A DNA stretch of 64,000 nucleotides from Heterodontus francisci (taxonomy: Eukaryota). The notes beneath the pieces are model-generated. The model saw nothing but the letters and a program-made list of their open reading frames with translations. It did not search any database and was not told the DNA's origin. Positions 27,293-61,932 of the stretch are shown here, piece by piece. Position numbers and translations under genes: made by a program. The stretch's first letter is position 1. Every line of letters starts with the position of its first letter. Where the stretch lies: contig NC_090404.1 of assembly GCF_036365525.1 (NCBI RefSeq), positions 3,348,001 through 3,412,000 of the forward strand. The letters run 5' to 3'.

Positions 27293-27760
27293 CCGCATTG
27301 CACAATAATAAGTAGCGGAGTCTTCCATTGTCAAACTGCTGATAGCCAAAGTGAAGATATTGTTTGAAAGGTCTTTGGAAGCAATAACTCGATTTCTAAA
27401 CTCTTGACTGTACTGTTTGCTGTCTTCACTATAGTACGAGACTATCCAATCCAGGCCCTTCCCGGGATGTTGTCGGTACCAACACATCCAGTAGCTGCGG
27501 AGATCGAACCCGCTGGTTTTACAGGTCAGTGTCTGGGATTGTCCCGGACGCCGCGTTTCTACCTCTGGCTGAGTCAATATCACATCCGACTGGACACCTA
27601 TAAAACGAAAGAAGCATTGATTATGGTGAATTGACTCGTGGCACTGTAACACCTCGATGAGGGGTTCTCGGCGTAAGAGAAACATTAGAACAATTGGGAA
27701 TAATTCGAGCTACGCACGGGATAAAAAACCCAGCAACAGGCTGAGACATATTGGTGACAT
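27293..27760 (-). CDS. V3: IgM-VH-like germline V segment, apparently functional (leader 27718-27760, V exon 27293-27597)
   Basis: [29 protein letters not shown]...YWMCWYRQ...[14 protein letters not shown] intron and RSS present. Confidence 0.92.
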
Positions 27761-28806
27761 CTTGCGTCTTGGCAACTGGCTATGTTAGAGTCCGGTGGCT
27801 CCAGTCACTCACTGAGCAAATCAGTCACGGGAGTTTATGCAACCGGCAGAGGGGGCGGGTTTGAAGGCACAAACTATTGGTCACATGCAATTGACGATGA
27901 CAGGAAGCACATGACGGCATCCACATCAACAGACAGAGCGACTACAATGACACATTAACAAAGTTGACAATTTGAACAGTACTCCTTATGGTTTCAGTAT
28001 TGCCATTGTATGGAGCGCAAAAATATTATTTCGTGTTAAATGTTAATGTTTTTAGGACTGTGTTTAATATAGAATCCTAGAGCACAACCTGCTTCCCCGT
28101 CTCTTTGAATCTGCTTCCATCATCCATTCAGACAGTGCATCCAGATCACAACCTCTTGTGAGAGACTGGAAATGGATTCAACATTTTAAAATGAACTGAA
28201 TAAATAGTTGAAGGGAAAAGACGCTTACAGGGCTATGGGCAAGAAGCAGGGGAATGGGATTAATTGACCGACCCTACCAAAACAGCCCGCACAGACACTA
28301 ACAGGCGCTTTGTGCGCTGTATATTTGGATGATTCTATGAAATGTCACCCCACGTTATTTATAGGGAACTGAAGGGTTAAAGTACATAAAAGGAAATTGA
28401 ACATTAACGAGGAATTGTGCAATATGTTTGTTCTTGCATTCTGTGCGTTTTCAGGAGGTTTGAACAGGTGAGAGAACGCTATTATTCGAACCCCACATAA
28501 ACCTAACAATTGGGACCCTATAACCGACAAATGTGAAATTCACGTTCATGCATTTGTTTAACGGTTATGGCTTTAAACGATGTAACAAGTATTGGCTTGT
28601 CTTGGGCAACCATGAGCAGCTGGAGCGTGACTGGTGTCTTCCTTGGTAACATTGGCTAAAATGTCTTATGTTTCTGTGACCCTTCGAGTGTTAATGATGT
28701 CTCTCCCGGAAAGAGGGCTCGGCGGATTTTCTGTAAGATCTGATGGTTAAAGTGAGTGAAGGTGGACGGTGTTTTCTGCTGCCTTTTTCTGTATCTCTCC
28801 TGTCTG

Positions 28807-28845
28807 GGTTTTTGCACCAGCTCAGTCAGGCTTCCTCTGGCTGTG
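28807..28845 (-). other. V4 23-RSS
   Basis: CACAGCC-AGAGGAAGCCTGACTGAGCTGGT(23)-GCAAAAACC. Confidence 0.88.
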
Positions 28846-29696
28846 TGTTGGCTGCACAGTAATAAACGGCAGCATCCTCTGCCGCAATTCTGCTCATTCC
28901 TAATGAGAAGGTTGAGCTGGCGGCTGAAGCAGAGAATCGGTCTCCAAGCCCAGAAGCATAACTGATATCAGACGAGTCGTAATATCTGGCTACCCATTCC
29001 AGTTTCTTCCCTGGAAGCTGTCGATACCAGTACATAACGTAGTCATCAATGTCACCCCCAGACATTTCACATGAAAGCTGATGCGACCCCTCAATCTTTG
29101 CGATAGCCGAAGCTGACTGGCTCAACACGAGGTCAGAGCAGGCTTCTGTTGATAGGAAGAAAGAACAGGAGCATTTAGATTGAAGTAGAAAAATAATTTA
29201 ACTTACAATTTTCGCATACAGAATGTCCAGCTAAGAAATAGTCGATTCGGCTCATATAGTCTATTCCAGTATCCATGCTGCACACGCGAATCCTCCACTC
29301 TCTTTACCTCACATCTCCCAATTGACTTACCCTGCTATTCCCTTCTGCCTTGTGTATTTCCCTAGCTGCTTAAGCAGTGAGTTACGCATTCCCACCACAC
29401 TCTGAATAAAATGGTTTTCTGAATTCGCGATTGAATTTATTATTTATGTTATAAGTATGGTTCCTCGCCTTGGACTCCACCACATTCTCCACATCTTCTG
29501 GACGTCTACCCTCTCAATCCCTTTCAGAATTTTAAAGACCTCGATTCTGTCTTCCCTTTTTGTGAGAAAATAGCTCCAGCTCTTCAATATGTCCTGATCA
29601 TTGTTTTTCGCAATGTGCTATTGCCGTGAAAAACAGGAAACGAAACTCACGGGCAGCAATAGCTAGAATCACACCGAGACATGTGGCGATTTCCAT
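28846..29696 (-). CDS. V4: second-family (IgW-VH-like) germline V segment, open frame (leader 29651-29696, V exon 28846-29145)
   Basis: MEIATCLGVILAIAAQACS-DLVLSQSASAIAKIEGSHQLSCEMSGGDIDDYVMYWYRQLPGKKLEW...EDAAVYYCAA. Donor C|GTGAGT, acceptor TCAACAG, 505 bp intron. Confidence 0.88.
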
Positions 29697-29794
29697 GACA
29701 GGGGTCTTCTGAGACTGATTAGCTGCCCGGACTCCTGGTCGAATCTGGGGCAGCGGAACACGATTTTCGGCGTAACTAGTTCCATTTGCCACTG

Positions 29795-32260
29795 TTGCAC
29801 CCATCTGTCCAGTTCATTCATATGTTCCTTTGACTTGTAGTTTCTCCTTCATTATCAACCACACAGCCAATTTTTCTATTGTCTGCAAAATTCTTAATTG
29901 TACCCCTTACAGTCAAGCCCAAAACAGCAAGAAACCATTACTGACCCCTGTGGAACTCCACTGGAAACCGCCTTTCAGTCACAAAAAAGACCACTGACCA
30001 TTACACTTTGTTTCCTGCCTGTTATCCAATTTTGGATCCGTCATGCCACTTTGCCTTGGATTCCATGTGCTTTTACTTTCACGACCAGTCTCCCATATGG
30101 GACTTGCTAAAATCCAAATAGACTGCATAAAATGCACTACACTCATCAACCCTTCTTGTTATTGCCTCAAAACAATCAATCTTGTTAGTCAGACATGACC
30201 TTACCTTAAAAACTCCTTGCTGAATGTCTTTGATTGATCCGTGTCATTCTAAATGAAAATTTATCCTGTCCCTCAGATTTTTTCCCCAATAAGTTTCCCA
30301 CCAGCGTGGTTAGATAGTCGTTCTATCCATTTCTCCCTTTTTAAGTAATGATACAATTTTAGCTGTCCTCTGGCACAAGACCTAGAGGCAGACGTTATTG
30401 GAAAATGATGATCAGATCTTCTGCTATTTCTTCTGTTGCTTCCCTTAACAGCCTAGGATACAATTCATCTGGGCCTGGGGATTTATCCTCTTTCAAAGAT
30501 GCTAAACCCTTTAATACTTCTTCTCTCACTACTTAAATTTCTTCTAGTATTTCACACTCCTCCCTCCTGATTGCAATATCTGACTTGTCCCTCCCTTTTG
30601 TGGAAAGAAAAGCAAATTATTCATTCAGAACCATTATCAACGTCTTTCGCCTACACATGCAGATTACTCTTGTGGTCCGTAATTGGCTCTATTCTTTCTT
30701 TAGTTATCCTCTTGTTATTTATGCATTTATTTTAAAAAAATCATTGGGGTTTCCTTGATTTTACTTGTCAATATTTTTTTCATGCGCGCTCTTTGTTTTC
30801 CTAATTTCCTTTTTAATTTTATCCCTACACTGTTTATACTTTTCTAGGCTTTCTGCATCATTGAGCCCTTGGTACCTGTCATTTGTTTCTCCTTTTTCTC
30901 CTTTCCTTTAAGCCCCTGAACTTCCAGGGGGCTCTGTATGTGTTAGTCCCTCTCATTTTCTTTAAGGAAACATACTTTATTTTAACCCTTGCTATCTGTT
31001 ACTTGAATGCCTCCACTGATCTGGTACTGATGTAGCTTCTAAAAGCTGTTTCCAGTCCACTTTAGCTAACTCAAAACTCAGTTCAGTAAAATTAACTTTT
31101 CCCCAATTGACAACTTTCATTCTTGGTGTATCTTTGTTCATTTCCATAAATACCCCAAATCTAACTGAATTATGATGACTTCCACCAAAGTGGTCCCCAG
31201 CTAATACACCTTGCAACTGCCCAGCTTCATTCTCAAAACTAAGTCCAGAACTGTCTCTTGTTGGGCTTGCTACGCAGTGGCTAAAACATTTCCCTGAAGT
31301 GAATTTTAAGAATTCTGTACCCTCTGTGCCCTTCACACTAAATCTATCCCAGTCAATATTGGGATAATTGAAACCCCCACTATTACTGCCTCATTTTTTT
31401 TCACTTCACAGAGATTTTCCTACATATTTGCTCTTATATCTCTCTCCGACAGTTTGAGGGTCTGTGTTCTCAGCTATCTGCCCTGGACTCGAGACCTCTT
31501 GCTTTGTTTATACCATTTATCACTGCCAAACTCTCTTGTTGTCTGTTTCCCAGACTTTGTTTCCTTCGGTTTCCAAACAAGCTTACTAATTTTCTCCCTT
31601 CCATTTCCAATTTTTCTTCTCTTGCCTCTGAATCTTCTCTCGCTTTCCCATCCAGCTGCCATGTTAGTTTAAACGCGCCCCCTGCCAGAATATTGGTCCC
31701 CGACCTGTTGAGGTGCCGCCAGTCTGGCTTGTACAGGCCCCACCTCCCCCAGAAGCGGTCCCAATGCCTCAGGAATCAAAAGCCCTGTTTCCTGCACCAT
31801 CCGTCCAGCCACGTGCTCATCTGCTCAATCTTACTATTTCGTTACTCACAAGCACGTAGCACTGGAAGTAATATGGGGATGACTACCTTTGAGGTCTGAT
31901 TTTCAATCTGTCGCCGAGCTCCCTAAATCTTCCTGCAGGAATTTATCCCTCTTTTGGCTTTTGTCATTGGTGCTCAGATGAACCACAGCCTCTGGCTGTT
32001 CACCTTCTCCCCGCAGACTGTCCTTTAGCCGCTCAGTGACATCCATGCTCTGGCACCAGGGAGGAAACATAACCATCCTGGAGTCACGTCTGTGGCCGGA
32101 GAAGCTCCTGTTTCACCTCGTCATTATCGAATACCCTATTATTATTGCTCTTCCAGTCTTGTTCCCACTCCCCCCCAACCGCGTGCAGCTGACTCACCCA
32201 TGGTGTCATGGATTTAGCTCTGCGTCCACTTCCCGGAGAAACCATCACTCTCATTAATAT
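29795..32260 (-). mobile_element. Degenerate CR1 LINE inserted in the V4 promoter region
   Basis: Minus-strand APE/RT remnants (HFGGSHHNSVRF, NWGKVNF, GVPQGS-like) and CR1 ORF1 esterase-like remnants. Confidence 0.7.
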
Positions 32261-33629
32261 TCAATATTGTTTGGACGGGCATGGGTTCGAATCCCACCGT
32301 GGCAGATAATGAATTCAATTAATAAATCTGCAATCATGAAAAGCTAGTCTAATGGTGACCAAGAAACTACATACATCCTTCAGGGAAGGAAATCTGCCGT
32401 CCTTAGCTGGTCTGACCTACATGTGAATCCAAACCCACAGCAATGTGGTTGACTCTACATGCCTACTGGAATAGCCTAACAAGCCACTCAATTCAAGGGC
32501 AATTACGGATGGGCAATAAATGCGAGCGACGCCCATCCCAAGAACGAATAAAAACAAAGTTCATTGTTCCTCAAACTCTCGACTCTTGTGCATTCCCTAC
32601 CCCCCTTCCCCCGCCTCCTCATCGCAGCTTTGGCAGCGTGCCTTCAGGCATCTTGGCCCTGCCCTCTGGAATTTCCTCCATCATCTACCTCCCGACCTCT
32701 CTTTCACCTTTACGATGTTGCCTAAAAGCTACCTTTGTGATGAAACATTTAGCCACCGGGTCTAACATCTCCCTATAGGGCTGGGTGCCCAATTTTATTT
32801 TGGAATGCGCGCCCTGGAATATTTTTCTATGTTAAAGGGGCCAAGTGTATAAATGCAACAGTTGTTGTTGTTGCATTACATTGTAAGGTTTGGTGCATAA
32901 CCGACCCCGTAAATGTGACGCATAGCGCCATCTTATGCATATGATGCCTGCCAATGAATTTGTGTTTTCTTGCTGGTGTACATAATTAGCAATAAAACAA
33001 GAGGGAGCTGAAGATTTTCGTTATGGAACAATTTGAAATCATGTGGAATACACTGCCTGAAATTGTGGTGGAACAGAATCAATATTACCTTACAAATGCG
33101 AGTTGAACATATACTTGAAACGTGAGCAATTTCAGGGCTATGTTGCAAGAAACAGGAGTGGGATTAGTTGATTCGCTCATTTTAGGGTCGGGAGAGGTGC
33201 AGTGGCCCAAACAGCGTTTCTTTGCTGTATCACTCTATGTTTCTATAGATGCCCTACGTTCTTTGAGGAATTCAGTAACATCAGATGTGTCGACAATTCA
33301 GTCTTTTTTATCCTGGCATCCAGGAACAGGAGTCGGCCATTTAAATCATTGTATTTAATAACAAAGGCTCAGGCGTCCATCATTCAAAGCATAAATACCA
33401 AAAGGGTAATCCGCCATGCGACCCAGTGTATCTAAACCTTAGAAATAAAATTCAATTAGAGACCAACTCAGTGATATTCTTGTGGGGCAAGTGAGCATGG
33501 CCGAGGTACTAAATGCGTATTTTCCATTCATCTTCACGAAAAGGGAGGTTGCTGCCATTGCCACAGTCGAGAAGGGGAGAGTAGAGCAACTTTATAGCAT
33601 AAAATAAGTAATGACATCAAGGCAGCACT

Positions 33630-35650
33630 CGAGCGATTCTGACACCAAAGAGCCCGAGTGAAATAAAGTCATTGGGGATCAGGGCGGAAACCTACCACTG
33701 CCTGGAGTTATATCTGGTACAAGGGATAATCGTCGAGGTCGTTTGAGGCCAATCATCTCAGTCCTAGCGCAACACTGCAGGAGTTCCTCAGAGCAGGGTC
33801 CTAGGCCCAAACATCTACAGTTGCTCCATCAATGACCTTCCCTTCATTGTGAGATCAGTTTTGGGGGATTTGTTTCCTGAAGATTGCAGAATGTTCAGTT
33901 CCATTCGCAATTTCACAGATAATGAGGCATTCTGTGCCCACATGAATTCAGACTTGGACAACATCCAGAGTTGTGCTGGAAATTGTGAAAATCATTCGCA
34001 CCACGCGACTGTCAGAGAATCTTCAACAAGGGAGAGCCTAATCACGTCTCTTTGACATTGTACGACACAACGATCATCGAATCTACCATCATCAACATAT
34101 CAGCAGCGCGGTCGCAAGATTGAAAAGGCATTGGGGGAGCCAGATAAATACCACATAAATAATGTAGCGATAACAACAGGTCAGATGCTGTGAGTACTGT
34201 GGGGAGTGACTCAAGTCTTGACTCCCCAAAGCCTTTCCATCACCTACAGGGAAAAAATAAGGAGTATGATCGAATAACATTCAAACTCCTGACTTATACT
34301 TTGTGGGATGATTTGCATTTTCCTGAAAGAATGGAACTCCAACAACATTAAAGTGTCTTGTCACCATTCAGAACAAATAAAGCTGTATGAAAACCATTCC
34401 AACCATGTTAAACATTTGCTCCCTGCGCCACCATTGGGACATAGTTGCAGAGTGCAACGCAAACAAGATGCACGGCAGCAACTCGCCAATTCGTAATCGA
34501 ATGCATCTCCCAAAACTGCTTTATCCACCACCTAGAACGAAAAGAGCAGCATGATCCACTTGAAGTATTGTTATGGCCACGTCATAAGTGGTGTGGGTGA
34601 TTCTCGCTCCTGATAGCAGGAGGTGTCTTTGTTATCAGGTTTTAAACCCCTTTGTGTTTTATGAATGATTTATTGAGCAATACGCCTAATCCAGAAATTG
34701 GCACCACCGCACCCACTCACACAGTCACTTAAACTCTCTCTGTCACCCACACACACGCACAGGAAGAGACAGATAGAGAGGAAGAGGGGCACGTGGTTTG
34801 AAGTGAGGTAGCGTTTTGGGATTCATGGTAAAACTGTTGAATTCTCTCAGAGGTAAAGTTCTCTTTACTTGAAGGCCTGTGGTGTTTGTAGATTTCTCTG
34901 TTGGTTGAAAGTTCAGCTTGAGGACAGGGAATCACTTCCGATGCTCTGCTGCACACATTGAAATGTAGAATTCACAACAGGGAGTCTTCCTTTCTGACTT
35001 GCTGGATTTTCTCCCATCTCTCTAAGCTTTGGTGATGCTTTTCTCAGGCTCCCCCCCTCTCTTCTGAGAGCTGCCTTAAAAGCTAAACGTTTTTCACAGC
35101 TCGCCTCTGTTGGTAGACAGAGATTTTCTACCATGTGATGACCAACAATGTCCCAGGATGTGGCTACTTCACATCATCTTTGTTTCAGAAGAACCCATTC
35201 AATGCAAAATGTCTCTTGATAGATTCATGATGGGTGCGATTGACACCTCCAGCTTTGAATGTGTTCTTTCTCTTTGGCAGTCAGTGTGAATGTGAATATA
35301 AAAAGGCAATGACTTTGGCCCTTCGGCGGTAATGTTTGAAGCACATTGTGCGCTTTATTCCAAAGAAAAGTAAATTTTTATAACCCTTTCGGTTGAACTC
35401 CTGTAGTTTAAATCGCAGCACTTTGCGTGAGCGTCGGAGTACACAGCATCCTAATGCAGCAATATACCGGCGTTCCTTTATAGGCATAGGGTTAAAATCA
35501 TGGCAATCCCTCCATAAGAGCACTGCAGGTGTATCCTCACCACATGGACTGCAGCTGGTCAGGAAAATGGCTCGCCGTGAACTTCTCAAGCACAAATCAG
35601 CTTGAACAATAAATATTGCTGTTGTCGGTGACGTCCAAACCCCGTTATTT
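33630..35650 (+). mobile_element. Degenerate L2/Crack-like LINE interrupted by an ~850 bp unclassified insertion (about 34568-35415)
   Basis: GVPQ-VLGP and FPED (FADD) remnants. The LINE 3' end resumes after 35420. Confidence 0.55.
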
Positions 35651-35681
35651 AAATAACAATATAAAACATAAGAAATGCTCG

Positions 35682-35867
35682 TTCTTCGGAACTAGAAGCA
35701 GAGTTAACGTTTCGGGTCAGTGACCCTTCGAGATCCGAAGAAGGGTCACTGACCCGAAACATTAACTCTGCTTCTCTTTCCACAGATGCTGCCAGACCTG
35801 CTGAGTGGTTCCAGCATTTCTTGTTTTTATTTCAGATTTCCAGCATCCGCAGTATTTTGCTTTTATG
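35682..35867 (+). mobile_element. Penelope-derived short insertion with a hairpin (inverted pseudo-LTR piece)
   Basis: Perfect 13 bp TSD TAAGAAATGCTCG at 35669-35681 and 35868-35880. 36 bp inverted repeat at 35694-35729 / 35740-35775. Confidence 0.8.
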
Positions 35868-36931
35868 TAAGAAATGCTCGGTTGCAGAGGGAGGTGAGAA
35901 TGAAAATTACAAAGTTCTATGATCAATCATCTACATTTTTGGGATAAGGGTATGGTGCCACTGGACTGAAGGACTGCAGAAGTTATATATTTCCTCAAAT
36001 AGGGGAGAGCGATAAACCAGACATTGCAGGCGAGTCAGCCTAACATCAAGGGTGGGGAATGTTTGAGATTCATTAATGCGGGGCAGAATTAATTGGCACT
36101 TGGAGAAAGATGGATTAATAAATGAAAATCAGCATGTATTTGTTAGGCAAAAGGCAGTAACTTGATTGAACTCTTTATGTAACTGAGAGTATGGAGGAGG
36201 GCAGTGTGATTAATGTGTGTATATTGATCACCAGACGGTCTTTGATAAAGTACTGTGTAATTGACTTGGAAGCAAATTTTAAGCCCATGCAATTTATGGG
36301 GCAGTGGCCGTGGGTGTGTGATATTAGCTAAGGACTGGAAAGCTGAGTAGTGGTGAAAACTTTTACTTTTGGACGGGAAGGAATAGCGCAATAGTTATCG
36401 ACAGTGATCGGTGTTGGGATCATAATACCTCTTATTGTACATAAATGATCTGGACTTTGGGATACAGGCCAAAATTTGAAAGTTTTGTGATGACGCGAGA
36501 CACGGTAATTTAGTAAACAGTGAGGCCATGAGTAACAGACCTTAGGAAGACAAACATATAGACTATTTTGTAAATAGGCAGAAGCTTGGCAGATGACTTT
36601 TAATGCAGAGAAATGTAACGTGATTCAGTTTGACTGGAACAAAGCAGATAGATAATCTAAACTAAAAGGTACAATTCTAACAGGGGTGAAGGAACAGGTT
36701 GCATGTGCACACGTCTTTGAAAGCGGCAGGATAAGATGAGAAGTCTGTTAAGAAGCGAAATTGTATCCTTGATTGGGACTAATGAATATCACTTTGAAAA
36801 TGCTGGCAAAAGCACGTTGGGCCAAATGACCTCCTTCTTTGCTGTGTAGTTCTATTATTCCACGAAGTGCTGTCAACAGTGGATTTATTCCTGTTTGCTG
36901 ATGGCAGAAATTCCTCAGTTACATCTTCTTC

Positions 36932-39055
36932 TGTTTATGTGCAAGCCCGGGTCTGATTCATCTCACTGTGATCACGCGCACGATAATACCTACTGCTGTC
37001 TTTCACTGTCATTTTTTCAGTTCCTTCACGGGATGTGGATAGACCAGCATTTATTGCACATCCCTAATTGCCCTTGAGAAGGTGGTAGTGAGTTGCATCC
37101 TTGAACCGCTGCACTTCTTCGGGTGTAGCATCCACAGTGCTGTTCGGAAGGGAGTTCCAGTATTTTGACAGTGAAGGAGCGGCAATATAGTTCAAAGTCA
37201 GGATGGCGTGTGTCTTGGAGGGGAACTTGCAGGTGGTGGTGTTCCCATGCATCTGGTGCCCTTGTCTTTCTAGCTGGTAGAGGTTACGGGTTTGGACGGT
37301 GCTGTCTACGGAGCCTTGGTGCATTGCTGCAGTGCGTCTTGTAGATGGCATACACTGCTGCCGCTGTGCGTCGGTGGTAGAGGGAGTGAATGTTGAAGGT
37401 GGTGGATGGATTTCCAATCAAACTGGCTGCTTTGTCCTGGATCGTGTTGAACTTCTTGAGCGTTGTTGAAGCTGCAGCCATCCAGGAATGGGAGCGTATT
37501 CCATCGCAATCCTGCCTATGCCATATAGATGGTGAACAGGCATTAGGGAGACAGGAGGTGAGTCACCCGCTGCAGAATTCCCAGCCTCTGACCTGCTCTT
37601 GTAGTCACAGTATTTATGTGGTTGGACCAGATCAGTTTCTGGTCAATGGTAACCTCCAGGATGTTGATAGTGGGGGATTCAGCGATGCTAATGCCATGGA
37701 ACATCAAGGGTAGATGGTTAAATTCTCTCTTGTTGGAGATGGTTATGCCTGGCACGTGAATGGCACTTGCCACTAATCATCCCAAGCCTGGATGTTGTCC
37801 CAGTCTTGCTGCATCTGGACACTGGTGTTCTTCAATATCTGAGGAGTTGCAAATGGTGCTGAACATTAGGCAATCATCAGCAGACAGCGCACTTCTGACC
37901 AGATGGTTTAGGGATGGTTGATGAAGCAGCTGAAGGGAGTTGGGCCTAAGACACTAGCCTGAGGACCTCCTGCAATGATGTCCTTTGGCTGAGAGGATTG
38001 ACCTCCAACAACCACAACCATCTTCATTTGTGCTAGGTATGGCTTCAACTACCAGAGAGCTTTCCCACTGATTCCCATTGACTCCACTTTTACTAGGGCT
38101 CCTTGATGTCTCACTCGGTCAGCTTCTGCCTTGGTATCAAGGGCAGTCACTCTCACCTCACCTCTAGAGTTTAGCTCTTTTGCCCATCTTTGGACCAGGC
38201 TGTAATGAGGTCAGGAGCTGAGTGGCTCTGGAAGAACCCGAACTGAGTGGCAGTGGCCAGATAATTGCTGAGCAAGTGCTGCTTGATAGCACTATCAATG
38301 ACAACTTCCATCACTTTGCTGATGATCGAGAGTGGACTGTTGGGGTGGTAACTGGTCGGGTTGGCTGGTCCTGCGTTTTGTGAATAGGACATATATGGGC
38401 AATTTCCAGATTGTTGGGTAGATGTCAGTGTTGGTGCTGTACTGGAACAGCTTGGCTAGGGGGGACGGCTAGTTCTGGAGCACAAGTCTTCAGTACTTCT
38501 GCCAGAATGTTGTCAGGGCCCACAGCCTTTGCAGTATCCAGCACCTGCAGCCATTTCTTGATATCGCGAGGAATGCATTGGATTGACTGATGCTGGGGAC
38601 CTCAGGCGGAGGCCGAGATAGATCATCCACTTGACACTTCTGGCTCTCTCTTGATATCCAAAGTGAAGATATTGTTTGAAAGGTCTTTGGAAGCAGTAAC
38701 TTGTTCCCTCACCTCATTATTTTACAAATTTGTATCTTCAGTATGGTACCAAACTAACCAATCCAGACCGTTGCCAGGACCTTGCCAGTACCTGTACATC
38801 CGACAGCTTTCACGATTGACCCCATTGCTTTTACAAGTCAGTCTCAAGAACTGACGGGTCTCTGCCTCTGCTTGAGTTAACACAGCATTCAACTGGACAC
38901 CTATGAAAATTGAACTGCATTAAACATAGTGAAATGACTCCTGTCTCTTAACAGGCCCGGCAAGGTCCAAGATCGAAACAGAAATATTGGAAAAATTGGT
39001 GCTATGCACTGGATAGAAAAGCAAATAATAAACCGGGAGATGTTGGTGACATCAT
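36932..39055 (-). pseudogene. V5: IgM-VH-like V pseudogene split by a LINE (RSS 36932-36970, V 3' end 36971-37012, V 5' part ~38646-38900, leader 39010-39055)
   Basis: In-frame TAA, conserved W to R and YYC to YYR changes. RSS is CACAGTG-23-ACATAAACA. Confidence 0.88.
37013..38645 (-). mobile_element. L2/Crack-like LINE fragment inserted into V5 FR3
   Basis: QFGFFQSHSAPDLIT and IQDKAASLIG motifs. Same family as 2225-2936. Confidence 0.85.
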
Positions 39056-39592
39056 GCTTCTTTGCTCTCGGCTAAAGTTTGCAGCCGGCCGTCCAATCAC
39101 TCACCGAATAAACCAGTTGGCTGATTGTTGGATCACAATCCTCAGTCACGAGGGTTTACGCAACCGGGAGAGGGCGCGGGTCTGGCGACACAAACTATTG
39201 GCTGAATTCAATCTACGACGACAGCAAACATTTTACGCGATCGACAGCCTCATTATTAAAGGCAAATTGAAGAGAAATCCTTCTGCTTTAGTGAACAACA
39301 TTGTGTTAAAGCACGAATATTATTTAGTATTTAATATTTATATTGTTTCTCGGAATGTTTTAGCAAGATAGAATTATAGCATAACGCTGCACATGCGGAC
39401 CAAGCTGCTGTGCCGACGCTTTAAAAGATCTATCCATTTAGCCCCACTCCCCTGCTCCTTCCACAGTGCCATAGATGTTCCCGTTTGAACTGTAGCTTCA
39501 ATTCCCTTTTGAAATTACTATTGGATCTGCAGCCCACACCCATTCAAACAGTGCATTTCAGATCACAGCCGTGCAAAACTATATTCCTTCAG

Positions 39593-40828: not shown

Positions 40829-40867
40829 GGTTTTTGGACAGATCTGGGTCTGATCTTTCTCACTGTG
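40829..40867 (-). other. V6 23-RSS
   Basis: CACAGTG-23-CCAAAAACC. Confidence 0.93.
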
Positions 40868-41339
40868 ATGCACTGCACAGTAATAAGTAGCGGAGTCTTC
40901 TATTGTCAAACTGCTGATAGCCAAAGTGAAGATATTGTTTGAAAGGTCTTTGGAAGCAATAACTCGATTTCTAAAGTCTTGATTATACTGTTTGTTGGCT
41001 TCATTATAGTACGAGACTATCCAATCCAGGCCCTTCCCGGGGCCCTGTCGGTACCAGAGCATCGTGTAGGTGCCGAGATCGAACCCGCTGGTTTTACAGG
41101 TCAGTATCAGGGATTGTCCCGGACGTCGCGTCTCTCCCTCTGGCTGAGTCAACACCACATCTGACTGAACACCTTTGAAAAAGAAAGAAGCATTAGTTAT
41201 GTGAAGTGACTCCTGGCTCTGAAGCACTCCCTGGAGGGATTCCCAGCCAAATGGAAATATTGGGAACAAGTGGGAAGTATTGTAGTGACGCACTGGATAG
41301 AACACCCAGCAAGAGGCTGAGAGATATTGTTGACCTCAT
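40868..41339 (-). CDS. V6: IgM-VH-like germline V segment, apparently functional (leader 41294-41339, V exon 40868-41172)
   Basis: [30 protein letters not shown]...WYRQ...[14 protein letters not shown] intron and RSS present. Confidence 0.92.
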
Positions 41340-47124: not shown

Positions 47125-47263
47125 TTAAACCTTTGAAGGGTCACTGACCTGAAAAGGTAACTCTGCTTCTATCTCCCCGGATGCTGCTCGACTTGCGAAG
47201 TAATTCCAGCATTTCTTGTTTTTATTTCAGATTTCCAGTATCTGCAGTATTTTGCTTTTATTT
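47125..47263 (+). mobile_element. Penelope pseudo-LTR-derived short insertion
   Basis: TSD CCAAGCACTAG at 47114-47124 and 47264-47274. Similar to 35740-35867. Confidence 0.75.
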
Positions 47264-50900: not shown

Positions 50901-53900
50901 AGAAGACGCGGATGTGAGTTTTGCCCACATCCCACCGCAGCCTCAAGGAGGGGAAGCCCCCCTGCTTCCTTCTCCAGTCGGCCCAGAATCGACAGAACGA
51001 GTCTCGAAATCGCTCGACCTCCAGCAGCCGGTTGTTAAAGTGCCAGTACGTGGACCCCGCCCGCGTGCGGAGCTGAGTGAACTCCTCCCACACCAGGCGG
51101 TGGTCCGAGCACGGCACCAGCCGCATGGAGGCCGCCGAGAGGCGGGAGACGTACACCTGCGAAAAGTAGAGGCGGTCGATTCGCGACCCTCCTCCTCCAG
51201 ACCTCCACGTGAAGGCGCTGGATTCGGGATGGAGATTCCGCCAGACGTCCACCAAGTTAAGGGAGCTGATCAGTCCCCTCAACTTCTCCACCGACGCTTG
51301 GCCGCGCTGGGGACCGGAGCGATCCCCCACCTCGAGGGTGCAGTTAAAAACCCCCCGAGGATGATGCAGTCGGCGCTATCGATGTTGCTCAAGAGAGCAG
51401 ACACTACATCAAAGAAGCGCACTTGCAACGCGCCAGACCTGGGCGCATACCCGTTCACAAAGTGGAGCGGCACGCTACCCAGGCGAACGGTGAGGTGGAG
51501 CAAGCGGCCCGGCCCTTGCTCCTTGACCCCCAAGATCTGCGGCTGAAACGTCGGGGCCAACAAGATAGCCACCCCACTAGAAATAGGGGTGAGGTGACTC
51601 ATGTAGACCCCACCCTGCCACTCCAGGAGCCAGGCGGCTTAGTCTCCCGGAACGGTGAGGGTTTCCTGCAGAAAGCTCACCGTGTATCTCCCTTCCCTGA
51701 GGACTGAGAGATTGTGAAATCTGCGGTGAGCTGCTCCCGTTGATGTTGAGGCTGGCTATGTTTATCTTCATGTCAAAGGTACTTAAAACCCGTCACCAAC
51801 AGCTCACTGTGAGGAGGGAGTGGAAGTGCACCTGGCCTTCCACTCCCCCAGCAGCCCATTGAGGAACACATTAAAACAGCGCCTCTCAACCAGTTTCACG
51901 CCCGCGCACTTGCCCGCTTTCTTCAGTACGGCACGGACGGACTGTATGATCAGCGCCAGATTCGACCAACGGACGAGGGCCAGTTGAAATTTATCGTGGC
52001 AACCCCTGCAAGCCGTGTGGAAATCCCGGAGTTCTGTCGTGGGGATGAGAGGAGATTCGGTGGGAGGCACGAGGGACTCCACCACCTCATTGGTGATGGA
52101 ATCAAGATCATCCTCCGTGCCCCACACCGAATCCCCATCCTCCTCCGGGTCATCACCACCAGCGGCCAAAACATCCACCACACACTGTGGGGTGGACATC
52201 CCGGCCGCGCCAGCTGGTCCCGCCTCTGTCATGATCCCACCCCCAGGATCGATGGCGGAGGAGTCCTCTCTGGGTTCTATTGTAAAACTGGAGCCTGTGG
52301 GTACCAGCAGTCCAGGACCTCCCTCCACCTCCGTCCCCAGGCCAATGAGTGGTCCAGGAGAGACAGAAGTTCCCGACTCCGGAAATCCAGCCTGAGCTGA
52401 GACCGGAGGTGGAGAGAGGCGGCCATCTCCCGCTCCGCCAGCATCCACAGGCCCAGCAGATCGGGCAGCATTCTCGTTTATAACCGGGTCGGGTGTCTCT
52501 TGGTTGGTGGTGGACTCCGGCTGGGAGGGCCGACCAGTTGGGGCCCCGCCCTCCCCTCTACTCAGGACACCCCGATCAAGCGGCAGTGGCAGAATGGGCG
52601 GAGTCCCCAGGCTACCCCACAACAAGCAGGGCTCCACTGGCTTCCCCTGGAGGGGCCACACGTACAGGTGTCTCCCCCTCCACTCCATCCTGAGGAATAG
52701 GGAGCTCCTGCCCAGACTTTGCAGCCTTGATGTTGGTGGTGGTGGTAGGGGAAACCTGGGGACCTGAAACAGGAGTCAGCTCCCCTCCAACAGATGGACC
52801 TCGTGCCTCAGGGCCCCGTGTTACCTCGGTGGAGGGGTGCCTTCTCCTCTTTTTCCCAGTTGGGTGCAGAGGCCCAGAGATCTCCATGTCATCAGAGGCC
52901 TCCACCTCCGCACTCTCTTTTTTCTTATTCACCCTGGGCCTGAGCCCAGCCCTGGTGCAAGTAGACTCCCCGAGATCGGTCTTTGTGCTGAGTCAGACTC
53001 GGGTTGTGTCAATATGTCCAGGGGACGCGCCTCGTGACATTTATTTTTCCTCCGCGCCTTCCTTCCACTTGGACGGGCACCCTCTTCCCTGCCAGAGGCC
53101 GTGAAAACAATAGCCTCCGGTACCGACTGAATGGTATCTGATGGAGGTGTAGTGGGGGTGGGAGGAGGTGCAGCGGCGCCACCTTGGGCCGCCGAGTTGG
53201 AGTTGGCCGCCGGGAGGTTGGGGCAGTTCTTACCAACATGCCCTTACAGACATGGCACTGCACTCCATCCAAGGTCCAGAAGACGCAGTAGGCCATCCCC
53301 TGGAACTCTGTATTGAAGTGGCCCTCTGCAACCTCCTCCCATGCCAGCTGCATGAATAGATGGCGGCGGAAGGAGTACACGTGTCGGAGGCTGTTCTCCC
53401 GAAGGACGAGCGGGACTGGGGTGAGCCCCGTCTTTACCTCCCCCAGATGGTGCAGGTGGGGAAGGAGGAGCTCACCAGGAATGAAGGGCGGGTCGTTGGA
53501 TAAAATGACACTTTGCGCAGTGGCCTCCAGGGGGTCCACTGGCAGAAAGGTCCCGCCCACGGTGAGCCCCTTGTTCAGAGCCAGGGACAACGCCCGCTCG
53601 GTCTTCAGGAAAAACACTGCCCTCCCGTACATTTTAGAGGCTGCAACAATGGCCGAAGGGCCGACAACCTCGGCCATTGCTTTCACGCATGCCTCTATCG
53701 TCATGTTTGGGTGGACGTAACTCTTGACCCCATGCTTCGATGTTATTAATGCAAACGGTGACGGGGCAACAGGTGCAGCTGCAGCAGCCGCAGCAGCATA
53801 TGTACGGGAAGGCCCCGCCACCGGCGAAGGAGGGCTTGCCATGGGGTCTAAGAGCCATGTCCACCCCCAAGAAGCAAAGCAATTTTACACAATTGAAACA

Positions 53901-54526
53901 AAACAAACAAACTGTAATCAAAGTGGAGTGGGAGTACAGGAGGATAGGGGTAGGAAGGTAAAGGAAAAAGGGGGGATAGGTGACTGAGGCTACTGAGTGG
54001 AAGAAGGGAGAGAAAGGCTGAAAGGGATGTTTGATCGAACTGCCAGTTGGAGCATCTTTGTAACAATTAGTCCAAAACTTTTTGCTGTCTTCCAGTTTGG
54101 GGAGGCTTCTTCGCCCAGGATGGCTCGAGCCTCCCGGTACTCTCCTCCTCTGCTTTTAACAAGAAAGTCTTCACCCGGGCAACTCCAGCTGTCCCAAGCA
54201 GGCAGTTGGGGTGGGGAGGGAGCTCCCTGTGTGCAAGCACAAATACAAATACAGGGGCCCCCTACTGGATTTGGCAGTCCCACCCAAGTCTTCCGGCCTC
54301 TTCTCCCTCCCCCAAACAGTTCAAACTTAAGAGTCCTTCAGGTGCCCTGACACCCACCTCTTCAAAACAATTGCAGCCTTTCTTGATGGTTTCTCTCCAC
54401 TCTGCATTCACCTCTCTCCACTTTCTCCAATTACTGCAGTCTCCTCTCTCCAGTTGCTGCAGCACAGGTGCAGCTGCTCCCCCTGATTGCTGGCAGGAAG
54501 TGCTCCAAATTGCCCAGCCAATCCCA
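47922..54526 (-). mobile_element. Apparently full-length (~6.6 kb) Tx1-clade non-LTR retrotransposon with frameshifted ORFs (ORF1 53842 to ~51804, ORF2 51771 to 48091)
   Basis: ORF1 SKHGVK...IEACVKAMAEVVGPSAIVAASKMYGRAVFFL; APE ASLNING, SRIDRLY, SDH, WHFN; RT KSPGLDGL, NWRPVSLL, LDQEKAFD, QGCPMS, YAED; zinc finger CNFC..ESVFH...C; poly(A) tail. Confidence 0.92.
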
Positions 54527-54670
54527 GTGCTGTACCTGTCCTGGGAGTGTTTGATGGGACAGTGTTGGGGGAGCTTTACTCTGTATCTAACCCCGTGCCG
54601 TACCTGTCCTGGGAGTGTTTGATGGGACAGTGTAGAGAGATCTTTATCCTTTATCTAACCCTCGCTGTAT
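54527..54670 (+). repeat. 68 bp satellite, 2 units (right of Tx1)
   Basis: Same unit as 47641-47921, resuming at GTGCTGTACC. Confidence 0.9.
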
Positions 54671-54689
54671 CTTTTGCGTAGTTCTATTT

Positions 54690-54980
54690 CTCTTGGGTCT
54701 GTCTCAGTTATTAGTGCACTGCAGATGATCTCTGTTTATTTCACTAAAGTTAGTTATTACTGAACTAGACCATGTCTCTGTTTATATTGCACTAGGCCCT
54801 ATCCCAGTTAGTACTACACTAGAACATGTCTCTGTCTAAGTTAAACTAAGGACTATCTTGTTTATGACTAGACTAAGTCATGCCATTGCTTTTATTAAAC
54901 GAGACCCTTCCTCTTTATATCACGCTAGGCTCTAACTCAGTTAATGTTTCACAAGATCATATCTCTGTTTGCATTCAGTC
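54690..54980 (+). repeat. Degenerate 27 bp tandem repeat with 54 bp higher-order structure
   Basis: CTAGACCATGTCTCTGTTTATATTGCA / CTAGGCCCTATCCCAGTTAGTACTACA / CTAGAACATGTCTCTGTCTAAGTTAAA... Confidence 0.6.
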
Positions 54981-55854
54981 ATCCTAAAATACATCTTCAA
55001 TATCTGTGCAGTGAGACAGCGAGTTTAAAAGTACAGATGCATTTATCCGTCCTGACTGCAGGTCAGTGACTCTGTCTTCTCCTAATATAACAGAGGCTTG
55101 TCAGTCAAATGTCGCTCTGTCCAGTCCAGGCCAAGCAGCAACTGGTAACACCTTTCTGTCTCTTAGACCGTGCCACACAAGTTTGGAAGATTCCAAAAGG
55201 TGTGATTTGTGTCCAATGTGGTGATGGTGGTGATGGGACCGAGGTGGTTTCTACCATGTGTAGGTGTCCCAAACGGGTCCTTCCTGACTTGTGTGAAGAT
55301 GGATTATGAATTTAAGGCTGTTCCCTGGGGATCACCCTTTAACCATTGTGTACAGATAGTCCCTGAGCTGATCCATCAAGGGAACCCGCCCAGAGCCATT
55401 GAATTGTCCATCCATTCATTCAATAATTTGCATCGTTGTATTTCATATCCATAATTGTCTTATTTTAAAATGTTGTTTGCTTTTTTTCTATTATCTGTTT
55501 TTTTCAACCTCTCTTTTGAATGATTTTACCAGTTTATTCTGCTCGTCACTCCCCATTGCTCCCATTCCCTTGACAGTCCCTACACTTCCACCCATCCCAC
55601 TTTCCCTCGTGACACCGTACAATCTGTCGTCTGCATGTGTGTTACCAAATTTCAGTCAGCTTCAATCACTCTTCTCTTTGTCCCTTTGTTTCGCTTTACC
55701 TCCGTCAGGCTGTGTTTAATCACTCTTGTCCATCTGCATTACACGGAACTATGCCAATCCTCTAACCACATTGGACGGCACTAGGGGTCATTCCAAAGGG
55801 GGAATAGTGAGCACTGTTCACTTTCTGTGACTTTCACTGTGCAAATACACCGCT

Positions 55855-56290
55855 GGATTAATCTCTCTCTATTGGTGTCACTCGTTATCACTGTACTCCG
55901 TCACACATGTATCTCTCTCCCTCTGTTGGTGTCTCTGTATAACTGTACTCAGTCTCACCTTTATCTATCTCCCTCTGTTGGTGGCTCTCTGTATCACTCA
56001 CTGTACTTAGTCTCACATTTACTTATCTGCCTCTATTGGTGTCAATCTGTATCCCTGTACTCAGTCTCACATTTACCTATCTGCCTCTATTGGTGTCAAT
56101 CTGTATCACTGTACTCAGTCTCATATTTACCTATCTGCCTCTGTTGGTCTCAATCTGCATCACTGTACTTAGTCTCGCATTGCCTCTCTGTATCACTCAC
56201 TTAACTCAATCTACCTTTATCTATCTCCCCCTGTTGGTGTCTCTCTCTTTCACTGTCCATATTCACACCTTTATCTATCTTTCTGTTGGG
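55855..56290 (+). repeat. ~54 bp minisatellite, about 8 units
   Basis: ATCTGCCTCTATTGGTGTCAATCTGTATCACTGTACTCAGTCTCACATTTACCT repeated. Confidence 0.85.
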
Positions 56291-56808
56291 GAGCTCTTTA
56301 CATGTACAGAAAGGGGACAATGCTGATTTGTGAAGGGGGTGTCCCACTCACAAGCACTTCTCTATTGCTCAAACCTTTAACTATTGAGAGCAAGCAGGCA
56401 CTGAGATGATGCACCGGGGGATCTTCAATCACCCAACTGCACAGGAGAATCATAGAGTACAGACATGTTCTGCGCAGATTCACTGTGGCGGGCCTCACAC
56501 ATCCGTACAGGTACCTTGCTACGATCTCCATTTCGTTCAATCACTTGCATTGTTCTAGTTCATAAATATAGTTGTGCTGATTTAATCTCCTGCTGGTTTT
56601 CCTATTGTCTGTCTGTTTATACATGTGTTAATTCAAAACCGTTCTGCTTTCCATTTGCTCGCTTTTCCCCATGTCTCCATGTTATAATGTTGAATAACCA
56701 AGTTATTCAAACACATTTTCCCTTTAACAAATCCATACTGAATTACGCTTCCAACCCATATTTGTCCACGTGTCAAATAATTCTATGAGACAGTTGCCTG
56801 GGAAAAGA

Positions 56809-57155
56809 CACAGTGGCGCAGTGGTTAGCACCACAGCCTCACAGCTCCAGGGACCCGGGTTCGATTCTGGGTACTGCCTGTGTGGAGTTTGCAAGTTCTC
56901 CCTGTGTCTGCTTGTGTTTTCTCCCGGTGCTCCGGTTTCCTCCCACAAGCCAAAAGACTTGCAAGTTGATAGGTAAATTGGCCATTATAAATTGTCACTA
57001 GTATAGGTAGGTGGTAGGGAAATATAGGAACAGGTGGGGATGTTTGGTAGGAATATGGGATTAGTGTAGGATTAGTATAAATGGGTGGTTGATGTTCGGC
57101 ACAGACTCGGTGGGCCGAAGGGCCTGTTTCAGTGCTGTATCTCTAATCTAATCTA
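56809..57155 (+). mobile_element. HE1-like V-SINE
   Basis: A and B boxes, V-domain and (TCTAA)n tail. Near-identical to 4386-4735. Confidence 0.9.
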
Positions 57156-57369
57156 GTGACTCTAAACATTTCCCCACCACCGACGTTATGCTGCCTCGCC
57201 AACAATTTCCGAGATAATTACTGTCTTCTTTAATGAACAAGAATGCAACATTTGCAATCCTTCAGTTCTTTTGGCAACCCACCCGTATTCCCAGAGGTGG
57301 AAGATTGAGCTTAGAGCCCCACAATTTTCATCGTTATTTCCTCGGCGAACCAGGATTTCTTATGTTTTA

Positions 57370-58560
57370 TTTTGTTATTTATATAACGAAGTGTGGGCGA
57401 TGCTGGAAAGATGAACATTAGTTGTCCAACACTAATTGTCCTTGGGAAGTTCCTCGTGAGCCGCTATGTGGGACTGTTAATGTCTGCGTGTTCAAGATAC
57501 ACACACAGCGTGGTGTTAGGAGTGGTGTTCCAGAATTTTGACCGAGCAGCGAAGAACGAGCGGCCAATATATTTCTAGATCAGGATGGTATAGACTTTAA
57601 ACACGACGTTGAAGCTAAAGGCTCTCCCATACGCATGCTAGTCTTGTCGTTCGAGGTGGTGAACACAGCGGGTTTGAGAAATTCTGAATTCTTGGCGAGT
57701 TGCTACAGAGCATCTTGTACATAGTACACACTGCATCTATGTTACGCTGCTTGTGCAGGGATGAGTGTTTTATCTAGTTGTTTTGTCATGGATGGTGTCA
57801 ATGTTATTGAGTGTTGTTGGAGCTCCATTCATTCAGGCAAAATGAAATTATTCCGAAGGCATAAGGCAAGAGTGTGAGTGTCATTCCATCAGCCTCCTTG
57901 CTGACGGCCTGTAGATAATGGAAAGGCTTTGGAGAGTCAAGAGTTTAGTTATTTCCCATAGTAGGCATAACCTCTGATCTGCTGCTGTAGCCACTGTATT
58001 TTTGTGGTACTTATGTGAATTTTTAAGTTTCTTGTCAACCGCAACACAGCCACAGACATGTTTACATTTGTCAATTTGGTGAAGATAATACCATTGAATA
58101 TGAAGGGGAGGTGATTCGACTCTCCTGTTGAAGATAATCTGACAGTCGTGTGTTTCCAATGTTATTTGTCTCGTCACAGCCCAAGTGTTGATGGGGTCCG
58201 TGCCTGATGTCATGTGACAAGGTGTGCCTCAGTATCTGGAATTGCCAATGCAAGTCAATACTTTGCAGTCATTAGGAAACATGCTCACTTTTGATCTCAC
58301 AATGGAGAGAAGGTCAGTGATGCAGCAGCTGAAGATGTTTGGTCCTAGGTCACAGCCCTGAGAAACTCCTGCAGTGCTGTCTTGGAGCTGAGAGGATTGA
58401 CCTCCAACAACCACAACCTTATTCCTTTGTACTTGGTATGACTCCAGCCAAGTATGTTTTCGATCTGATCCCCAGTGATTTCGATTCTACTCGGGCTGCC
58501 AGCTGTCCGACTCGCTTGAGTGCTGCATTGATGTCACAATGTCAGGATGTATCCCAACTG
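57370..58560 (-). mobile_element. Degenerate L2/Crack-like LINE, inverted paralog of 33630-35650
   Basis: VVGGQSS...TAGVSQGCDLGPNIFSC...MFPND. Confidence 0.65.
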
Positions 58561-59547
58561 AACCGGGTACGTTTCCACTTTGAGCCAATCTTTCAAGTAT
58601 ATTCTCTTTATCTGCTTTAATCCTCTACTAATGCTCTACTGCCTCCTCCTTGGCAGTAGCAATGACAACATCCTCTTTCTTTATAAAGACAAATTAAAAA
58701 CGCATAAAGTACCTCAGTCACTCTGTCTGTCCCCACGAGAAGATCATCATGCTGGTGCCTAAACTGATAAAGTTCCTCTCTTTTAGAGACCTGAGCATCT
58801 TCATGTCTGATGCCATTGTATTATTCATAGATCCATTCCGGTGAATGGTCGACGCAGGTGGCTATGTAAATAGATTCAGGGGACTGAATGTCCAACTTTT
58901 GTCCCATATTACAAGATATAATAGGATGAATTGTCGATATCTCTTCTGATGTTGCTTGAAGCCGCGAGTAATGCAGGCCATCTATGAATAGCCTTCTTGG
59001 AATCATAGAATGATCCGGCGATCGTACCTTTCCCAGTTCTGAATCGAGCCAATCAACTCATTCCACTCCCTTGCCTTTTCACATAGCCCTACCCATGTTT
59101 ACGTTTCAAGGCTATATCCAACTCCCGTTTGAAAGTTACCTTTGAATCTGCTTCCACCACTCTTTCAGGTAGTGTATACTAGATCATAACAATTCGGTGC
59201 GTAAAACGACATCCTCATCTCCCATTTGTTTCATTGTCTATCCTATTTACTACCAAGAAATTATAGATCCATATTCCTGAGATGTTGCAATGTTTAACCT
59301 ATAGACGGGGACGGTTATGCACGCAACCTTACTATGCAATACAACAGTATCTATTGCATTTATACAACGAGAGTCTTTAACGTGGCAATGAGCGATATGG
59401 GCGGGAGGAGCGATCTGGTCTACGCTTACGCATCCTCGCTCGCAGTCAGGAACCTAGTTACGCCGGAAATTCTGTTTCGTTGCCTCTGATTCAATCAGGA
59501 GACCTGAGGTCGTTACGTCAGCCAATCCGTCTCAGAAGACCCAGGCC

Positions 59548-60443
59548 ATGGAAATCACCACAAGCATTTGTGTGATTCTGGCTCACGTGGCCCGTGAGTT
59601 TCACTTCCCCTTTTTGACTGAAATAAAACATTGTGAGAAAGAATGATCAAGAAACGTTGCAAAACCTGGGCTCCCCCACCACCCCCCATAGAATTGAAAG
59701 GTGAGATGTGACCTAATAGATGTGTTTAGAATTTCGAAAGCGATTGATAAGCTCGACTGAGAGAACACGTTTCCAATCGTGGGAGACCAAGACGAAAAGC
59801 TACAAATGTAGAATAAATAATAAATTCAATAGAGAATTCGGGAAACTATTTTACTGAGAGAGAGGCGAGAATGTGGAATTCCCCATATAAGGAACTGGGT
59901 AAATACATGAGGCAGCAAGGGATAACTCAATTGGGAGAGATGATTGAAATGGAGCAACGTGGATTTTCTTGTGAAGCGAAAACTGGGGAATAGGCTATTT
60001 TGGCAGAACAGCCTCTCTCTGTGCTTTAAATACTATGTAAATCGTCGAAAATTGCGAAAATCTACTTCAACCTAAATGCTCCTGTCTTTTTTTTCCTATC
60101 CATTGCATCCAGTCCTGACCTCGTGCTGACCCAGTCTGTTTCGGCTATCACAAATACTGAGGGGCCACATCAACTATCATGTAAAATGTCTGGGAGTGGC
60201 GGGGGCCATTGATGACTACACGATATACTGGTACCTACAGCTTCCAGGAAAGAATCTGGAACGGGTAGCCAGATATTATAATTCCACTACTATCAATTAT
60301 GCTTCTAGGCTTGGAGTCAGCTTTAACCGACAGCCTGGACTTCACTTTGGGCATGACATACATTGCGGCAGAGGATGCTGCTGTGTATGACTGTGCAGCC
60401 AGCACACAGCCAAAGGAACCCCCGCTAAACCGGTGCAAAAACC
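59548..60443 (+). pseudogene. V10: second-family (IgW-VH-like) V pseudogene (leader 59548-59593, V exon ~60106-60404, RSS 60405-60443)
   Basis: Paralog of V4. Acceptor AG changed to TG, frameshifts, YYC to YDC. RSS CACAGCC-23-GCAAAAACC is intact. Confidence 0.9.
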
Positions 60444-61468
60444 CAGACAGGGGAGAGGAAGAAAAAGAGAGCAGAAAACGCCGTCCAACTTCCCTCACTT
60501 TCATCATCAGATCTTACAGAAGATCCGCCAAGCCCTCTTTCCAGAAGAGACATCATTAACCCCGGCGAGGTTACAGAAAACATCAAACACCCTCCGACCA
60601 ATTTCAGGAAATAACTGCCAGGACTTTCTGACAGACTGTTGCAAAACTACCACGCATGCTCCAGGAGCTCATGTTTGCGCAAGACAGGCATCGCGTATCG
60701 CGTTCAAAAACCGATCACCATTAAACAGTTGCACTATCGTCGATTTCACAGTTGTCGATTAGAGCCTCTCAATTGCTCCGTGTGTGTAAGGTTGGATCAA
60801 CTGTTTACACACGAGTTCACACCTCGTTGGGTGCACTGAACAAATGTATTAAATAAATCCCCTTTCATATTCAATTAATCTTTGTGCACCGAAGAATATA
60901 AGAAATAGGAACAGGATTGCCCTGCATTTCCCCATTGCCCTGTATTGGTCTTGCTTCAAATATCTAGCCAATTGTGTTTTAAATGTTAGTTTTGAAATTG
61001 CTTTCAGGACCCTTCAGGTCACGGCGATCTGGAAGTACTGCCTGAATGGGTGTTGGAGGCAGATTCAAAGAGTCAAAGCAGCAGGTTGGCCCAAATGCCC
61101 GCTTTCTGTGCGGTATGATTGTATGATTCAATATCGATAAACACAGTCCAGGGAACAACTTTTATTGCTAAATAATATCTTTGTGCTTCACGCAGTCTTA
61201 TTACTGGAATCATGAGGAGTACTGTTCAGTTTGCCAAATTTAATAATGTACCATTATAACCGCGTTGTTTATGTTGATTTGGATGTTGTCGTGTGGTTGC
61301 AAACGACGTCGATTGGATGTAACCAACAGCCTGTGTCTTCAAACACGCCCCCTCTGCCGGTTACATAAAACCCTGTGACTGAGGATTGGGATCCAACAGA
61401 CCAACAATTGTTTTACTCAGTCAGGGACTGGAGGAACAGCTGCAAAACTGAGCCAAGCGCCAAGAAGC

Positions 61469-61932
61469 ATGAGGTCAAGAATATCTTTCAGCCTGTTGTT
61501 CGGTTTCCTATCCGGTACGTAGCAAGAATTTTTCCAAATGTGTCTCATTCGCTGTTATTTCCCCCCGGAAGGTGTTCAAAAACCAGGAGCCACTTCACCA
61601 TAACGAATGCTTTTTTTCATTTTAAAGTTGTCCAGTCGGATGTGGTGCTAACTCAGCCAGAGGCAGAGGCGCGGCGACCCTGGCAAGCCCTGACACTGAC
61701 CTGTAAAACCAGCGGGTTCGATCTCCGCAGCTACTGGATGTGTTGGTACCGACAACATCCCGGGAAGGGCCTGGATTGGATAGTCTCGTACTATAGTGAA
61801 GACAGCAAACAGTACAGTCAAGAGTTTAGAAATAGAGTTATTGCTTCCAAAGACCTTTCAGCCAAGATATTCGTTTTACGCATCAGGACATTGACAATGG
61901 AAGACTCCGCTACTTATTATTGTGCACAGAGG
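61469..61932 (+). CDS. V11: IgM-VH-like germline V segment, apparently functional, inverted orientation (leader 61469-61514, V exon 61628-61932)
   Basis: [30 protein letters not shown]...YWMCWYRQ...[14 protein letters not shown] intron. Confidence 0.92.

Follow-up and report, generated by a model that had tools for sequence, protein, structure and literature searches.

A probable recent germline gene conversion between two antibody-like V genes of the inverted, duplicated T-cell receptor delta locus in Heterodontus francisci

Two V genes and the patch they share

The stretch of 64,000 nucleotides (nt) analysed here (the window; NCBI RefSeq assembly GCF_036365525.1, contig NC_090404.1, positions 3,348,001 to 3,412,000 of the forward strand) lies in the T-cell receptor (TCR) delta locus of the shark Heterodontus francisci and holds variable (V) genes that resemble those of the immunoglobulin heavy chain (IgH). 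Two of them, V3 and V11, lie 34 kb apart in opposite arms of an inverted duplication and share an almost identical patch across complementarity-determining regions (CDR) 1 and 2. We consider it very probable that this patch is a real two-copy sequence and that a recent germline interlocus conversion between the two genes left it there. The genes are numbered by position along the locus and coordinates are those of the window, with values under 1 or over 64000 for the DNA on either side; the place on the contig is the window coordinate plus 3348000. The features of the two genes, including framework region (FR) 1 changes and recombination signal sequences (RSS), are as follows.

27254..27292, minus strand: V3 23-spacer RSS, canonical heptamer, nonamer matching at 7/9 positions
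27293..27597, minus strand: V3 V exon, open frame with a V-set domain, Gln for the family Leu in FR1
27365..27533, minus strand: V3 shared patch, 168/169 identical to 61692-61860, permutation P=0.0002
27718..27760, minus strand: V3 leader exon, read from the sequence by its ATG and the GT donor that follows
61469..61514, plus strand: V11 leader exon, read in the same way from its ATG and following GT donor
61628..61932, plus strand: V11 V exon, open frame with a V-set domain, Trp for the family Gly in FR1
61692..61860, plus strand: V11 shared patch with a private silent change at 61834, both ends crossed by read contigs
61933..61971, plus strand: V11 23-spacer RSS, canonical heptamer, nonamer matching at 8/9 positions

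A recount agreed exactly with the near-identity described in the initial annotation: the patch matches at 168 of 169 nt, while 14 of the 64 nt ahead of it and 13 of the 30 nt behind it differ, and the alignment bore out its extent from the first Cys through CDR1, FR2 and CDR2 to the start of FR3. The leaders, introns and flanks were likewise found to be diverged as claimed, with 44/197 differences upstream, 55/185 in leader and intron and 33/128 downstream. The sole difference inside the patch, A at 61834 in V11 and C at 27391 in V3, is silent in an Arg codon and private to V11 among the 12 aligned genes and remnants, in which private sites were scored. The only sites common to V3 and V11 alone are 61726, 61742, 61756 and 61757.

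In a Sawyer-type permutation test of seven genes and 21 pairs (334 variable of 595 gap-free columns, 5000 shuffles; V1, V6, V8, V9 and V13 omitted owing to gaps; top ten pairs printed), the pairs V11-V3 and V3-V7 each reached a global P=0.0002 and the next-best pair P=0.14. At the lowest rate of the other paralogues in the interval (18/169), the chance of one difference or fewer is 1e-7. The Poisson interval for 1/169 (0.015-3.3%) lies far under the 22-30% divergence of the flanks, and the event is therefore recent relative to the duplication. Only two copies of the patch at 99% identity or more were found in the assembly (40 scored of 51 candidates), and the longest exact match in the 264 kb surveyed, with tandem and dispersed repeats set aside, was the V3/V11 run of 142 nt. 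Along the arms, three of 185 fixed windows of 169 columns reached 160 identities and none reached 165, on a grid that does not coincide with the patch. The phylogenies of tract and flank were in conflict, as the downstream flanks join V3 with V13 (95/96) and V11 with V9 (86/84) and not V3 with V11; the upstream-flank tree left five genes unseparated.

Silent sites were homogenised as well, with 1/33 silent differences inside the patch and 10/30 outside, while the other 14 pairs show 3-10.5 of about 35 in the same interval. This speaks against purifying selection for a conserved ligand having held CDR1-CDR2 identical in two old duplicates, as do the FR1 changes of V3 (Gln) and V11 (Trp), which are non-conservative and fall at conserved positions. 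The absence of any amino-acid difference over 56 codons and the family silent rate, already low here, would fit such selection, which we nevertheless regard as very improbable; selection could still have helped keep a converted allele. Both genes are intact outside the patch in leader, splice sites, frame and RSS, and the rescue of a pseudogene, suggested earlier, finds no backing in them. A lesion erased inside the patch is possible; the neighbours V1, V6 and V8 are broken within the same CDR1-CDR2 interval.

Read contigs and depth

Read evidence came from four runs of one sample aligned to V11, as contigs rather than raw reads; runs X3 and X4 gave almost equal figures and may be one data set, and run X5 is RNA by guess only. 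A 2576-nt contig leads from the V11 upstream flank into the patch and ends at 61721, a 139-nt contig spans the shared part (61695-61833), and a V11-specific contig (61804-61916) crosses the 3' end of the patch with no other letters. The V11-specific contigs stand at full flank depth. The shared contig had a depth of 19.1 in run X1, where four flank contigs averaged 10.7 (1.8 times), and of 14.1 in run X3, where the flank mean was 8.5 (1.7 times). The junctions of V11 are therefore real and a further copy of the patch is present; we infer this second copy in the DNA from the 1.7-1.8 times depth in one sample.

An assembly or polishing artefact, in which reads of one gene overwrote the other copy, is accordingly quite improbable. 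If a single gene held the patch, the shared part would show one-copy depth rather than the excess seen in X1 and X3; moreover, both V11 junctions are found in read contigs that were built independently, and flanks this divergent would not allow reads to be misplaced. In favour of the artefact are the want of a direct read check for V3 and a depth under 2.07 times, the value to be expected if four haploid copies and the words shared by V7 all contributed. The differing sequence at one copy that had been proposed as a refutation was looked for in read contigs of the V11 copy only, where the V11-specific contig across the 3' end shows no other letters. In X3 and X4, the upstream contigs depart from the assembly by one or two letters (61563, 61687), probably those of the second allele, so that the single difference of the patch is of the order of allelic variation. 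With the permutation test, the homogenised silent sites and the junctions and depth of the read contigs, the proposal of a recent germline conversion was upheld.

Run X5 left the V11 leader, the start of FR1 and the V11-specific letters of FR3 uncovered and is uninformative on expression. Its record 29 (61699-61920; 222 nt, depth 71) carries V7 letters at 61741-43 and 61755-58, followed by the CDR2 of V3/V11 and then the FR3 of V3. Its 22 other letters and two gaps equal the count for a hybrid with V7 at the 5' side and V3 at the 3' side (11+1+10), four of the sites being inferred. As V7 and V3 share 37 nt at the junction, more than the 31-letter words of the assembly, an assembly chimera is the likeliest origin of this record, and a hybrid allele or somatic conversion is less likely. 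Elsewhere in the reads, at V2 (20836-21140), the contig with V2 letters had a depth of 5.98 in X1, about half that of single-copy flanks, and V2 may be haplotype-specific or strongly heterozygous.

Patch ends, further patches and the duplicated locus

The boundaries of the patch had been called sharp; the ends are less sharp than they look because both sit in family-conserved blocks, one surrounding the first Cys and the other where FR3 begins, in which the mean identity of V2, V7 and V10 is 0.91-0.93 (61690-61719) and 0.91-1.0 (61840-61869). The reversal of the usual pattern of variable CDRs and conserved frameworks is weaker than claimed, as among these other intact genes 19-30 of the 169 sites of the interval differ (11-18%), no more than in FR1 (10-14 of 65) or in the part after the interval (14-23 of 72). 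Across the family (61693-61860, 13 pairs), silent divergence averaged 0.20 against 0.35 in FR1 plus FR3 and replacement divergence was similar; this depression may reflect repeated conversion or codon constraint.

A second patch joins V3 to V7 and overlaps the V3/V11 patch by 36 nt.

27327..27400, minus strand: second patch in V3 FR3, 74 nt identical to V7, permutation P=0.0002
40902..40975, minus strand: V7 copy of the second patch, 74 nt identical to V3

Similar patches were found outside the V exons. An exact run of 103 nt between the arms lies near -51.6 kb, other runs, of 51-63 nt, are found close to J segments and on the upstream side of V1/V15, and several arm alignments hold 100-column windows at 96-100% identity, of which the one over the transmembrane (TM) exon may be due to selection. 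Three arm-to-arm blocks stand above the arm mean, at -52193 to -51403 (with 119306-118493), -20338 to -18841 (with 104685-103283) and 16125-17222 (with 77529-76456); from their identity of 85-91% and exact runs of 57-103 nt they are likely to be further conversion patches. The V3/V11 patch is thus one of several conversion-like patches and no single event. The idea of a special transfer of a whole CDR1+CDR2 cassette finds no support, as the ends lie in conserved blocks and other patches fall in FR3 and outside V exons.

Programmed, targeted germline diversification, in which AID or RAG breaks in germ cells steer conversion to V exons, was weighed against the same patches. The two strongest non-repeat patches among the V genes are both inside V exons, the silent rate is depressed in the exon core family-wide, and shark T-cell receptor loci are described as somatic AID targets (PMC5931798). 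However, comparable arm-to-arm patches lie outside the V exons, including the 103-nt exact run and several windows at 96-98%, and exons are simply the best-conserved templates. AID hotspot motifs are scattered throughout the region, so that their presence near the patch ends is uninformative. We hold targeting to be improbable. Somatic AID-driven conversion of the bird or rabbit type was rejected, as both genes are unrearranged with RSS and open frames and the V11-specific contigs stand at full flank depth. The near-identical stretches at 4386-4728, 25519-25725 and 56809-57151 were also ruled out as arm conversion; they belong to a young 343-nt dispersed repeat with copies 97-98% identical on many contigs (40 scored matches at 97-100%, of 1398 candidates).

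The locus itself is built of two back-to-back delta cassettes of diversity (D), joining (J) and constant (C) segments. The left one lies below the window on the minus strand, with a D carrying 12/23 signals at -4282 and then 18 J-motif matches; its mirror lies above the window on the plus strand, with a D at 95365 and 11 J-motif matches.

-44057 to -44380, minus strand: left C1 exon
-46138, minus strand: left TM exon
112183-112470, plus strand: right C1 exon, 57% amino-acid identity to the left C1
113837, plus strand: right TM exon, nearly identical to the left TM exon

The C1 and TM exons look intact in both cassettes, and in the right cassette the exons checked (the hinge exon not in detail) have open frames and splice sites. 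A genome search for C1 returned just these two exons among 15 candidates, and both carry CLxxxFxP, the signature used for the delta constant region (PMC10322711). A protein search for a name of the C exon yielded none, and PDB, Pfam and Atlas gave only C1-set, so the delta assignment rests on the architecture together with the published signature. A long J array from about -76 kb, beyond the left C delta on the minus strand, is J alpha, and its place after C delta agrees with the delta assignment. The arms are collinear over 35 kb aligned, at 78% identity, and an old inverted duplication makes up the whole V-D-J-C delta region (-52 kb to +119 kb). V1-V10 are oriented towards the left cassette and V11-V15 towards the right one. 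V11 had been described as inverted, which is true of its strand with respect to V3 but not with respect to its own nearest D-J-C, as it faces the second cassette 33-52 kb downstream. V3 and V11 were also considered as a mirror pair of the duplication; this was rejected, as the flank trees favour V3 with V13, although a collinear chain can be drawn either way.

The closest proteins of the V family are those of cartilaginous fish, none of them a named TAILV protein in our protein searches. The family shows 55-59% identity to 19 heavy-chain-variable (VH)-like loci located farther on in this contig; in the tree, it makes up one clade together with a basking-shark V (100/98), and this clade nests among the VH rows. 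By this comparison its members are best placed as IgM-VH-related V segments of the shark TCR delta locus, closer to IgH V than to TCR V, and are TAILV-like by position and affinity. The orthologous V of the basking shark is linked to a J and a delta-like C in a gene model only, and no V-D-J-C read was seen. Another VH-like family, divergent from the main one (37-40% identity), has one open gene and two broken copies.

28850-29137: divergent VH-like member, just upstream of V3
60117-60400: divergent VH-like member, just upstream of V11
67552-67838: divergent VH-like member, just upstream of V13

Between V1 and the left D lies a 783-codon open frame (8031-10379, minus strand), which by its look we take to be the reverse transcriptase of a long interspersed nuclear element (LINE).

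Proposed mechanism and related systems

In homologous repair of diverged copies, exchange usually begins and stops where identity is high. A break within V3 or V11, or close by, would have been repaired from the other gene, and strand exchange would have had its limits in the conserved framework blocks that border CDR1 and CDR2. As the patch ends lie in these blocks, both loops would have moved together without need for targeting. V3 is the somewhat likelier donor. Where both flank sisters retain the interval, the patch has two derived sites in common with V13, the sister of V3, and one with V9, that of V11, and it differs at five sites from V13 and at seven from V9. The V3 patch also continues unbroken into a V7- and V13-like FR3. 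Private-change counts per region did not settle the direction of conversion.

Several points weigh against conversion between V3 and V11 as set out here. Read junctions were observed for the V11 copy only, with none direct for V3, and all read support comes from one sample, probably the assembled one. A depth of 1.7-1.8 times is intermediate between those of three and of four haploid copies, and one allele may therefore lack the patch. The family silent divergence of the CDR1-CDR2 interval is itself low (mean 0.20, against 0.35 outside), and the silent contrast between V3 and V11 is therefore partly a regional property. No unconverted allele or orthologue was seen that could show a one-way transfer, and the direction is slightly favoured by two shared sites against one.

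V3 and V11, which face one D-J-C delta cassette each, now encode the same 56 codons, with a common CDR1 and CDR2 peptide and a common extra Cys. The shuffling of the repertoire foreseen in the initial annotation is thus turned around, as two genes made to share CDR1 and CDR2 lower germline loop diversity. The extra Cys, private to V3 and V11, stands directly before the conserved Trp, 13 residues past the first Cys. Type I VNAR has an extra Cys at the same offset (21 and 34), paired with CDR3 (PMC6312525). Neither D segment of the locus encodes a Cys in its forward frames, so a CDR3 partner would need N nucleotides, and the similarity to type I VNAR is best taken as a resemblance. A wider scenario appears unlikely to us, namely that antibody-like V genes between two delta cassettes exchange patches with CDRs in a continuing process of germline, and perhaps somatic, conversion, offering one VNAR-type-I-like extra-Cys scaffold to both delta constant regions, with the V7/V3 hybrid contig of X5 as a further real product.

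Germline conversion among V genes has long been known in mammals, and the patch is a clean example, ordinary in kind. Conversion among mouse T15 VH genes is in print (PMC2189069), and like it the present case concerns germline V paralogues that exchanged sequence in an inherited way and within a short evolutionary time; unlike it, the genes are TCR delta V segments of a shark, which lie on opposite strands and differ by 20-30% outside the patch. The human IGK proximal and distal duplication (bioRxiv 10.1101/006866) also shows exchange between V-bearing inverted arms, but those arms are >98% identical with a tract of about 16.7 kb, whereas the shark arms average 78% and the patches measure 50-170 nt. 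Somatic conversion of immunoglobulin genes in birds and rabbits, considered with avian IGH inversions (bioRxiv 10.64898/2026.09.05.749481), is likewise a templated, CDR-spanning transfer in a locus with inversions; it acts on rearranged V genes of B cells with pseudogene donors, whereas here two unrearranged open genes are seen at near whole-tissue depth.

The arrangement of IgH-like V before a TCR delta D-J-C and a J alpha array resembles that of shark TAILV, for which a catshark table gives the order IgM, TAILV, IgW-V/TCRD, TCRA and conversion of UrIg2 exons in the same shark gene complex is reported (PMC12227049). Here, at least a dozen genes and remnants lie between two delta cassettes. 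Two D-J-C delta clusters, inverted in amphibians, with VH-like V in the frog, are described for the VH-delta of frogs and birds (PMC3457774), and adjacent inverted TRD genes for the newt (PMC12698447). Since an alignment at 78% can still be made between the non-coding DNA of the shark arms, the shark duplication is likely to be lineage-specific and convergent. A literature search, outside which the main shark TCR delta papers lay, showed no paper that describes conversion tracts in delta V genes of sharks or a shark with two delta constant regions.

These results show that the IgH-like TCR delta V genes of sharks evolve as mosaics even where their flanks differ by 20-30%. Such mosaic genes mislead trees of V genes and the calling of alleles from shark repertoire data. 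A larger result than the patch is the duplicated inverted delta cassette. An apparently intact second inverted D-J-C delta cassette would parallel those of frogs and newts, and two delta constant regions raise the question whether each serves a different set of V genes.

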